Shown: positions 35,970 to 36,392 of the stretch, in pieces
Position numbering within the stretch: the stretch's first letter is position 1
Layout of the letters: each line of letters opens with the position of its first letter
DNA from: Octopus vulgaris
Taxonomy: Eukaryota
Length of the DNA: 64,000 nt
Direction: 5' to 3'
Assembly: GCA_951406725.2 (NCBI GenBank)
Contig: OX597822.1
Span: 49,848,001 to 49,912,000 of the forward strand
Program-made: the position numbers and the translations under genes
The notes under the pieces: model-generated
What the model saw: the letters and a program-made list of their open reading frames with translations, nothing else
Told to the model about the DNA's origin: nothing
The model's database searches: none

Positions 35970-36029
<60 letters not shown>

Positions 36030-36104
36030 TGAAAATTATTATGTCTCTCTAAATTTCTATTATTGAAAACAAGTGGGTGTATTCCACCGAACCTAGGTAA
36101 ATAA

Positions 36105-36241
36105 AACCTTCGAACAGAGATTGTCAGAAGCGACACCTACTGGTCTGGCTACGCTACATTGAAAAGGGGCAATACCCCGAAACGCGTCTGTAGCTGCCGG
36201 TCAAGTAGTGTGGAGCGACTGACCTCCCTTGTTCGAAGGTT
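36105..36241 (+). ncRNA. Type I hammerhead ribozyme (U3-A8 core variant) at the tip of a long hairpin
   Basis: GGC-TAC-GCTACA-TTGAAAA-GGGG-CAATA-CCCC-GAAA-CGCG-TC-TGTAGC-T-GCC (36147-36198). Outer stems are CTAC/GTAG, GTCAG/CTGAC and a perfect 12-bp AACCTTCGAACA/TGTTCGAAGGTT. Confidence 0.85.
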
Positions 36242-36357
36242 ATATGGATACAGTTTGTGTATCAAATAGCTAACTTAAGGCGATGGCCTCATGGAGCTAA
36301 TAAGCGGACATCTTTATTCTTATTTTTATAAGAATGCCATATTAGTATGGCGATAAC

Positions 36358-36392
<35 letters not shown>

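Follow-up and report, generated by a model that had tools for sequence, protein, structure and literature searches.

A truncated, partly inverted copy of a hammerhead-bearing Octopus vulgaris repeat, with predicted self-cleavage as a dimer, likely circularisation and likely copying into (TA)n by a PLE enzyme

Introduction

The window analysed here, a stretch of 64,000 nucleotides from Octopus vulgaris, contains a sequence resembling a hammerhead ribozyme in which the canonical core pair C3-G8 is replaced by U3-A8. The locus raises the question of whether this is a hammerhead kept by selection or a decayed sequence, which kind of element carries it, and which enzyme inserted it. For animal retrozymes, the mobiliser was left between LINEs and PLEs (PMC7229834), and the arguments on it continue to draw on co-occurrence and incomplete homology. 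The repeat family described here is young and numerous enough to display PLE-type insertion footprints directly. As intact candidate enzymes are present in the same genome, these footprints make the question of the mobiliser testable in vitro.

The locus is a truncated, partly inverted copy of a repeat, and we consider it likely that the RNA of this repeat cuts itself as a dimer, circularises and is copied into (TA)n by a PLE enzyme. What makes the locus valuable is chiefly the family, with the PLE footprints that it shows, rather than the U3-A8 pair.

A hammerhead motif with a swapped core pair

A preliminary description of the locus had proposed a complete hammerhead with a U3-A8 core, a bulge, stems and a GUC triplet, capping a hairpin of ~137 nt closed by 12 bp. 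Every one of these sequence features was found in its place (Table 1). The motif had the type I core letters U4 G5 A6 A9, G12 A13 A14, A15.1-U16.1 and H17, together with a Watson-Crick 3-8 pair (U-A). Folding of 36104-36241 gave pairing probabilities of 0.94-1.0 for stems I and II, and the 338-nt cassette had a fold z-score of -6.0 against shuffles.

The S. mansoni hammerhead has a loop 2 of six nucleotides, CAAAUA. An S. mansoni-type layout had been claimed for the window motif; the UAC bulge and the 6-bp stem I agreed with it, but loop 2 of the window is CAAUA, with five nucleotides.

A loose descriptor that accepted any Watson-Crick 3-8 pair matched the window once, at this site, while it gave 0.03 matches per shuffled window, and the strict form gave 0 in 100 shuffles. 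An Rfam search of the window motif returned no hammerhead match even at E<=10, which confirmed the earlier expectation that standard searches are blind to it.

Table 1. Positions of the features in the window and of the two candidate PLEs elsewhere in the genome
Feature	Position	Strand	Basis or remark
Type I hammerhead	36150-36194	+	sequence, fold, covariation
UAC bulge	36150-36152	+	sequence
Stem I GCTACA/TGTAGC, 6 bp	36153-36158 / 36189-36194	+	sequence
Core TTGAAAA (RNA UUGAAAA)	36159-36165	+	sequence
Swapped core pair, U3 = 36159 and A8 = 36164	36159..36164	+	motif and family counts
Stem II GGGG/CCCC, 4 bp, loop CAATA (CAAUA)	36166-36169 / 36175-36178	+	sequence
GAAA	36179-36182	+	sequence
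Self-complementary stem III ACGCGT	36182-36187	+	predicted pairing between two hammerheads
C17 (GUC); predicted cut directly after it	36188	+	sequence
137-nt rod with hammerhead at tip; perfect 12-bp closing helix 36105-36116/36230-36241	36105..36241	+	fold
Forward arm, unit positions 1-311, subfamily A, ending at first fixed 3' end P1	36053..36363	+	99.0% to L007 over 311 nt
Inverted arm with the final ~25 nt of the unit and ~8 nt of the following one, ending at P2	36021..36053	-	L007 comparison
Conserved hairpin and CTATTA just 5' of P1; candidate reverse-transcription start signal	36342..36362	+	column conservation, 3' ends
Conserved unit head around P2	36053..36103	+	45/51 columns invariant
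Left (TA)n target tract	35970..36022	not assigned	
Right (TA)n target tract	36361..36390	not assigned	
PLE alpha, young, Neptune-like	L117:1626-3968 and L114-L129		period about 4.7 kb
PLE beta, second young, C-rich, Neptune-like	L175:1502-1530 and L176-L189		period about 6.2 kb

A young tandem repeat family with U3-A8 fixed

The window unit was searched against its own genome (2.8 Gb, 227 contigs). This gave 1,362 first-look candidates, of which 40 were scored; the best were 94-99% identical and were found on many chromosomes. Tandem loci set the period at 362-364 nt, giving a unit of 363 nt. Three subfamilies were sampled: A, which includes the window copy; B, sharing about 85% identity with A; and C, sharing about 82%. 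Genome-wide, the hammerhead motifs numbered at least 1,420 (1,207 exact A/B and 213 exact C; controls 0), tallies that are lower bounds on motifs and not numbers of insertions. We then used 96 loci chosen by best identity or motif, a choice that biases them toward ribozyme-containing copies. Head-to-tail hammerhead pairs were present in 23 of these, 5 of which had been chosen deliberately as arrays, and the longest array had 5.5 units (L140). The family is a young, non-coding 363-nt tandem repeat dispersed over chromosomes, with the high copy number and tandem arrays that had been anticipated for it.

The unit has a GC content of 0.41-0.42. Its longest ATG frame has 39 codons and is absent from subfamily C, and a coding explanation was rejected on this ground. 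A tRNA-derived SINE or Pol III origin was rejected as well: a simple pattern found no A box, T-runs lie inside A and B, and the B-box-like GTTCGAA corresponds to the closing helix and occurs on either strand. The unit sequence was found in data from five organisms and is therefore not confined to the present assembly. Assembled contigs from three presumed-RNA runs and one unlabelled run covered most of the unit on the L029 dimer and crossed the cut site; several extended into (TA)n and flanking DNA, and such contigs cannot reveal ends, level or circles. We found no prior report of this family in the searched, mostly open-access literature on octopus and cephalopod hammerheads and PLEs; repeat databases such as Repbase and Dfam may already list it.

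The A/B pattern left positions 3, 7 and 8 open and had a control count of 0. U3-A8 was present in all of the first 100 A/B sites listed, and the exact C3-G8 pattern, whose occurrence in other copies was the test set beforehand, was found in 0 of the 1,207 motifs. Within one mismatch of the C3-G8 pattern there were two C3-A8 sites and one U3-G8 site in A/B. In subfamily C, 97 of the first 100 listed of the 213 sites carried U3-A8, and none of those listed carried C3-G8. N7 varied (A, C, U), and the remaining core letters were the same in the majority of all three subfamilies. The U3-A8 pair is fixed in the family, as the preliminary description had supposed. In the L029 array, both units carried A6G, which is probably inactivating.

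The canonical-core pattern combined with the stem III of the family matched 5 sites genome-wide, versus 1 in the control, and none was in the family. Isolated canonical C3-G8 hammerhead-like motifs outside the family were seen at L061:639-680 and L062:1500-1523 (-); the latter had the same GCTACA stem I strand and GAAACGCGTC, with a very short stem II.

The novelty that had been implied for the U3-A8 pair did not hold. Natural U3-A8 covariation has been reported in a paper that also cites in vitro activity of such ribozymes (PMC3088659), and ~1,300 U3-A8 minimal hammerheads were tied to the Cercyon PLEs of S. mansoni (PMC4209133). The compensatory core pair is common to these and to our family. 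As described in these sources, the Cercyon pair occurs in heterogeneous minimal PLE motifs, whereas that of the family occurs in a canonical 6-bp/4-bp hammerhead of a uniform non-coding tandem element.

An older, unrelated tandem family of ~325 nt with a hammerhead-like motif was also observed (L104:1385-1715, L108:1444-1996; 260 candidates, copies 67-80% alike). Six of its copies had U3-A8 but had been picked by that pattern, and one unselected copy had U3-G8.

Compensatory changes in the helices

Seventeen natural copies from the three subfamilies were aligned, leaving out the degraded copy L202 983-1288. In a 74-pair structure, derived from the same sequences on which covariation was scored, 98.6% of cells paired across the 17 copies. 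When the majority letters of A and C were compared, 12 of the 74 pairs differed; 11 were still paired, 7 of them via double changes, versus 0-1 doubly changed pairs in slid controls. The number of doubly changed pairs did not exceed the shuffle control (195/500). Covarying pairs were one of stem I (A-U, G-U, G-C), the base of stem II (G-C, A-U), the pair under the bulge and, in stem III, the middle of the palindrome, which reads ACGCGU in A and B and ACAUGU in C. The outermost stem I pair of subfamily C is G-A. Helices I and II are backed by covariation, from few independent events because there are only three subfamilies.

Since the helices covary and the core is unchanged between subfamilies, the motif is not a dead copy with chance mutations, and the hammerhead fold is almost certainly under selection. 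The opposite reading, in which the likeness to a hammerhead is due to chance or decay and the two core changes are random, could appeal to Rfam not recognising the motif. The data on the family refute it, and we give it hardly any credence, against the fixation of U3-A8 over three subfamilies, the absence of C3-G8 from the A/B motifs, the compensatory helix changes, and the low chance rate even of a much looser descriptor.

In one insertion arm, at L202:983-1288, the flanks match subfamily C and heavy alteration is limited to the rod and hammerhead. Local damage or a fault of the assembly may explain this.

Anatomy of the window copy: a truncated insertion with an inverted arm

The cassette had been described as a monomer of ~340 bp. 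Comparison with the family showed instead that the window contains 311 nt of one 363-nt unit plus an inverted arm of 33 nt. The forward arm differs from L007 at 3 positions, and the inverted arm has 3 mismatches to L007 on the opposite strand. About 28 nt of the unit are lacking, and each arm ends in (TA)n. The same layout of forward and inverted arm was found in L002, L009 and L018. Having a single ribozyme, the window copy cannot release a unit or circle, and by itself it is a dead end with one predicted ribozyme. Visual inspection of the window's open frames of >=110 aa revealed no recognisable host gene, and the single copy has no evident host function.

A second, degenerate hammerhead-like motif was noticed in the unit head at 36063-36098 (TTGAAAA, a 5-bp hairpin, and GAA followed by CTAGGT). 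Subfamilies A and C both have an interrupted GAAA in this motif, which is therefore probably either a relic or a component of the RT signal.

Insertion ends point to a PLE enzyme

An inverted arm was present in 65 of the 96 loci, giving partial tandems with a 5'-truncated inverted arm. Of the 161 outer 3' ends of the 96 loci, 63 lay at P1 (unit position about 310), 86 at P2, about 62 nt beyond P1, and 12 elsewhere; 144 of the 161 were followed by (TA)n. A second classification of 63 two-ended loci gave 54 with P1 and P2, 2 with P2 twice, 1 with P1 twice and 6 with an unclassified end, and the one-ended loci had 26 P2, 6 P1 and 1 other. Of the 57 two-ended insertions with both ends classified, 54 thus combine a P1 end with a P2 end. 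This rule of one P1 and one P2 puts a number on the origin of the PLE tail and inversion. The most conserved parts of the unit in the 17 copies were the surroundings of P1 (24/27 columns) and P2, compared with 30/43 for the hammerhead. Target-site duplications were masked by the (TA)n flanks.

These features match published PLE traits. A PLE protein cuts both strands of AT-rich DNA, and two internal RNA start sites define the tail (PMC11167929); a tandem, inverted and tailed layout with a (TA)n bias was described for PLEs as well (PMC8557442). From the insertion anatomy and these traits together, we infer that a PLE enzyme made the insertions, and the spread of the family was very probably PLE-driven.

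Only 2 of 152 5' ends lay at the cut site, so linear units cut at both ends do not usually serve as template; a circle or an uncut multimer does. In the anole, a PLE inserts equally well with a dead hammerhead, using uncut RNA (PMC11167929), so read-through of the cut site is equally compatible with circles and with multimers that were never cut. The comparison of within-locus and between-locus identity (median 1.28% vs 0.47%) did not separate rolling-circle from linear templates.

Points of 5' truncation and inversion clustered at unit positions 175-182, 258-262 and 334-342, near strong helices. At one inversion junction, a 128-nt filler (L024:1343-1470) perfectly matched a locus on C14 (L032). 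It resembles the result of a switch to another DNA or RNA template in the course of insertion; its interpretation as a PLE body was rejected because of this match.

Candidate partner PLEs in the same genome

Two young Neptune-like PLEs were examined. PLE alpha was found by a GIY-YIG search in which 150 of 6,136 candidates were scored, a sample that will have missed PLE families. It had an open RT and GIY-YIG frame of 781 aa in 16 of 20 stretches, with a mean identity of 98.4%. The frame scored 28.9 bits for RVT_1, just below the cut-off, and its linker CX4CXXC is of the Neptune/Nematis type. Its terminal repeat carries a minimal hammerhead, UUGAUAA...GAAACAUGU, with U3-A8; the pattern matched 1,455 sites, versus 25 in the control, and nearly all of the first 100 listed were of that type. 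Alpha uses (TA)n targets, as the family does, has two ends about 37 nt apart, and showed the pairing of P1 and P2 in 5 of 5 inverted loci. PLE beta, with 12,596 candidates, ends in (TA)n and commonly has open frames of 884-1,008 codons. Its minimal hammerhead CCGACGA has C3-G8, and U4 is changed to C.

The unit has no RT and GIY-YIG reading frame, and blastn detected no sequence shared between it and PLEs alpha and beta (best E 0.75). Alpha is a better guess than beta only because of the shared U3-A8 core, and we name it as partner enzyme of the family tentatively, as a possibility that leans toward doubtful.

More speculatively, the U3-A8 core could be a ribozyme dialect that, in this lineage, an active Neptune-like PLE has in common with the retrozymes parasitic on it. 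Circles would be loaded on the dimeric enzyme of the PLE, possibly via pairing of the retrozyme stem III with that of the PLE, and the two target strands would be primed at two fixed sites of one circle. The stem III ACAUGU is identical in subfamily C and PLE alpha. We regard this extension as unlikely; if true, the partner of the retrozyme would be named, intact and open to purification, and a single step would account for both the tail and the inversion of PLEs.

The unit could also be the terminal repeat (pseudo-LTR) of an unsampled autonomous PLE, with the copies as its 5'-truncated stubs. It has every PLE end signature, the search scored only part of the GIY-YIG candidates, and Xenopus retrozymes resemble pseudo-LTRs (10.64898/2026.07.22.740005). 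However, the unit is preceded upstream by itself, up to 5.5 times in L140, and no copy was seen continuing into a PLE reading frame. PLE pieces lie beside the unit at L015, L106 and L130; they are set apart by (TA)n or unrelated DNA, so these loci were rejected as PLE chimeras. We judge the pseudo-LTR origin very improbable.

Predicted cleavage, circles and a proposed mechanism

Stem III was not formed in the predicted fold of the monomer (P 0.0). With two copies of the window rod, the double hammerhead was the minimum-energy form (-136.1 versus -130.0 kcal/mol), in line with the dimer-acting type that had been assigned to the self-complementary stem III. The centre of the palindrome covaries and can pair only between two molecules. 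In three natural tandem transcripts, the dimer-hammerhead fold lay 6.6-9.5 kcal/mol above the minimum, with a probability of about 0, in a folding model that has no tertiary contacts. Circular units were predicted to fold stably (z -6.1 to -11.6, three tested). In view of the stable circular and two-molecule folds, the canonical layout and the conservation of the motif, the family hammerhead probably cleaves itself, and its RNA may well form abundant circles, the latter with distinctly less confidence. For comparison, 8 of 9 predicted Xenopus retrozyme dimers were uncleaved in vitro (10.64898/2026.07.22.740005), and in mussel and axolotl the retrozyme units are closed into circles by the host ligase (PMC7229834).

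In the mechanism that we propose, transcripts of an array would fold, and two hammerheads would pair via the palindromic stem III and cut after GUC. The freed 363-nt units would be closed by the host ligase, as in the mussel and axolotl. A PLE protein would nick both strands of a (TA)n tract, and reverse transcription would begin at the two fixed points about 62 nt apart, one per strand. Copying would pass the ribozyme site, possibly for more than one round, and the inverted arm would arise where the two cDNAs are joined. The copy in the window would be one such product.

A non-autonomous mini-PLE, which spreads from uncut linear multimers and whose hammerhead keeps its fold but cuts weakly, late or only with the PLE protein so that circles are rare or absent, is a less probable account, though one with a real share of the evidence. 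The PLE anatomy is our firmest result, and the dimer fold is disfavoured inside tandem transcripts. In addition, the anole PLE ribozyme requires protein and is dispensable for insertion (PMC11167929), and PLE minimal hammerheads were described as poor cleavers (PMC4209133). Against it, the layout of the family hammerhead is the canonical 6-bp/4-bp one seen in retrozymes that cleave and not the PLE minimal one, its core and helices were kept over about 18% divergence, and a 363-nt period needs regeneration of arrays, which circles supply. We therefore favour the mechanism with self-cutting and circles.

Comparison with known systems

Judged by its sequence, the family works like an animal non-LTR retrozyme. 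Its tandem units lie within 150-450 bp and each have one type I hammerhead, which bore out the retrozyme-like anatomy claimed earlier. A short non-coding tandem unit is common to the family and to the animal retrozymes of PMC7229834 (350-390 bp in the mussel, 330/350 bp in the axolotl), as are GC under 50%, a single type I hammerhead per unit and a predicted self-paired circle. Stem III of the family, one pair and a palindromic tetraloop, is as in the axolotl HHR_Amex1, which acts as a dimer (PMC7229834). Unlike the retrozymes as described there, the family has U3-A8 and consists mainly of scattered insertions, either single or short, that show 5' inversions and two fixed ends in (TA)n, and its circles are only predicted.

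With PLEs of the Neptune/Nematis type (PMC8557442) and the anole Poseidon (PMC11167929), the family shares partial tandems, an inverted 5'-truncated arm, a one-end tail, AT-rich or (TA)n targets and a hammerhead within the repeat. It differs from them in having no reading frame, a period of 363 nt and a tail of about 62 nt, versus 4.7-6.2 kb and a tail of 30-40 nt in the PLEs. Xenopus retrozymes have been described as non-autonomous PLE derivatives (10.64898/2026.07.22.740005), with which the family shares the host-parasite relation and the co-occurrence with PLEs. The Xenopus link, as presented there, consists of co-occurrence and pseudo-LTR homology, whereas that of the family consists of insertion anatomy, with no homology found.

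Each part is known already: U3-A8 hammerheads, animal retrozymes and PLE anatomy. Rfam and CUGANGA searches overlook an entire retrozyme lineage here, so reported absences of retrozymes from PLE-bearing genomes may be search artefacts.

Other repeats were also observed in the window. A different interspersed repeat, which likewise has inverted arms and (TA)n tracts, was present at 8082-8949, 9079-10016, 23799-24191, 26560-27018, 45606-46398 and 53321-53481. A C-terminal fragment of a LINE-like RT was recognised by eye at 56600-57016 (-), and a weak remnant of a PLE RT was found at 57379-57456 (+) (tblastn E 0.005).
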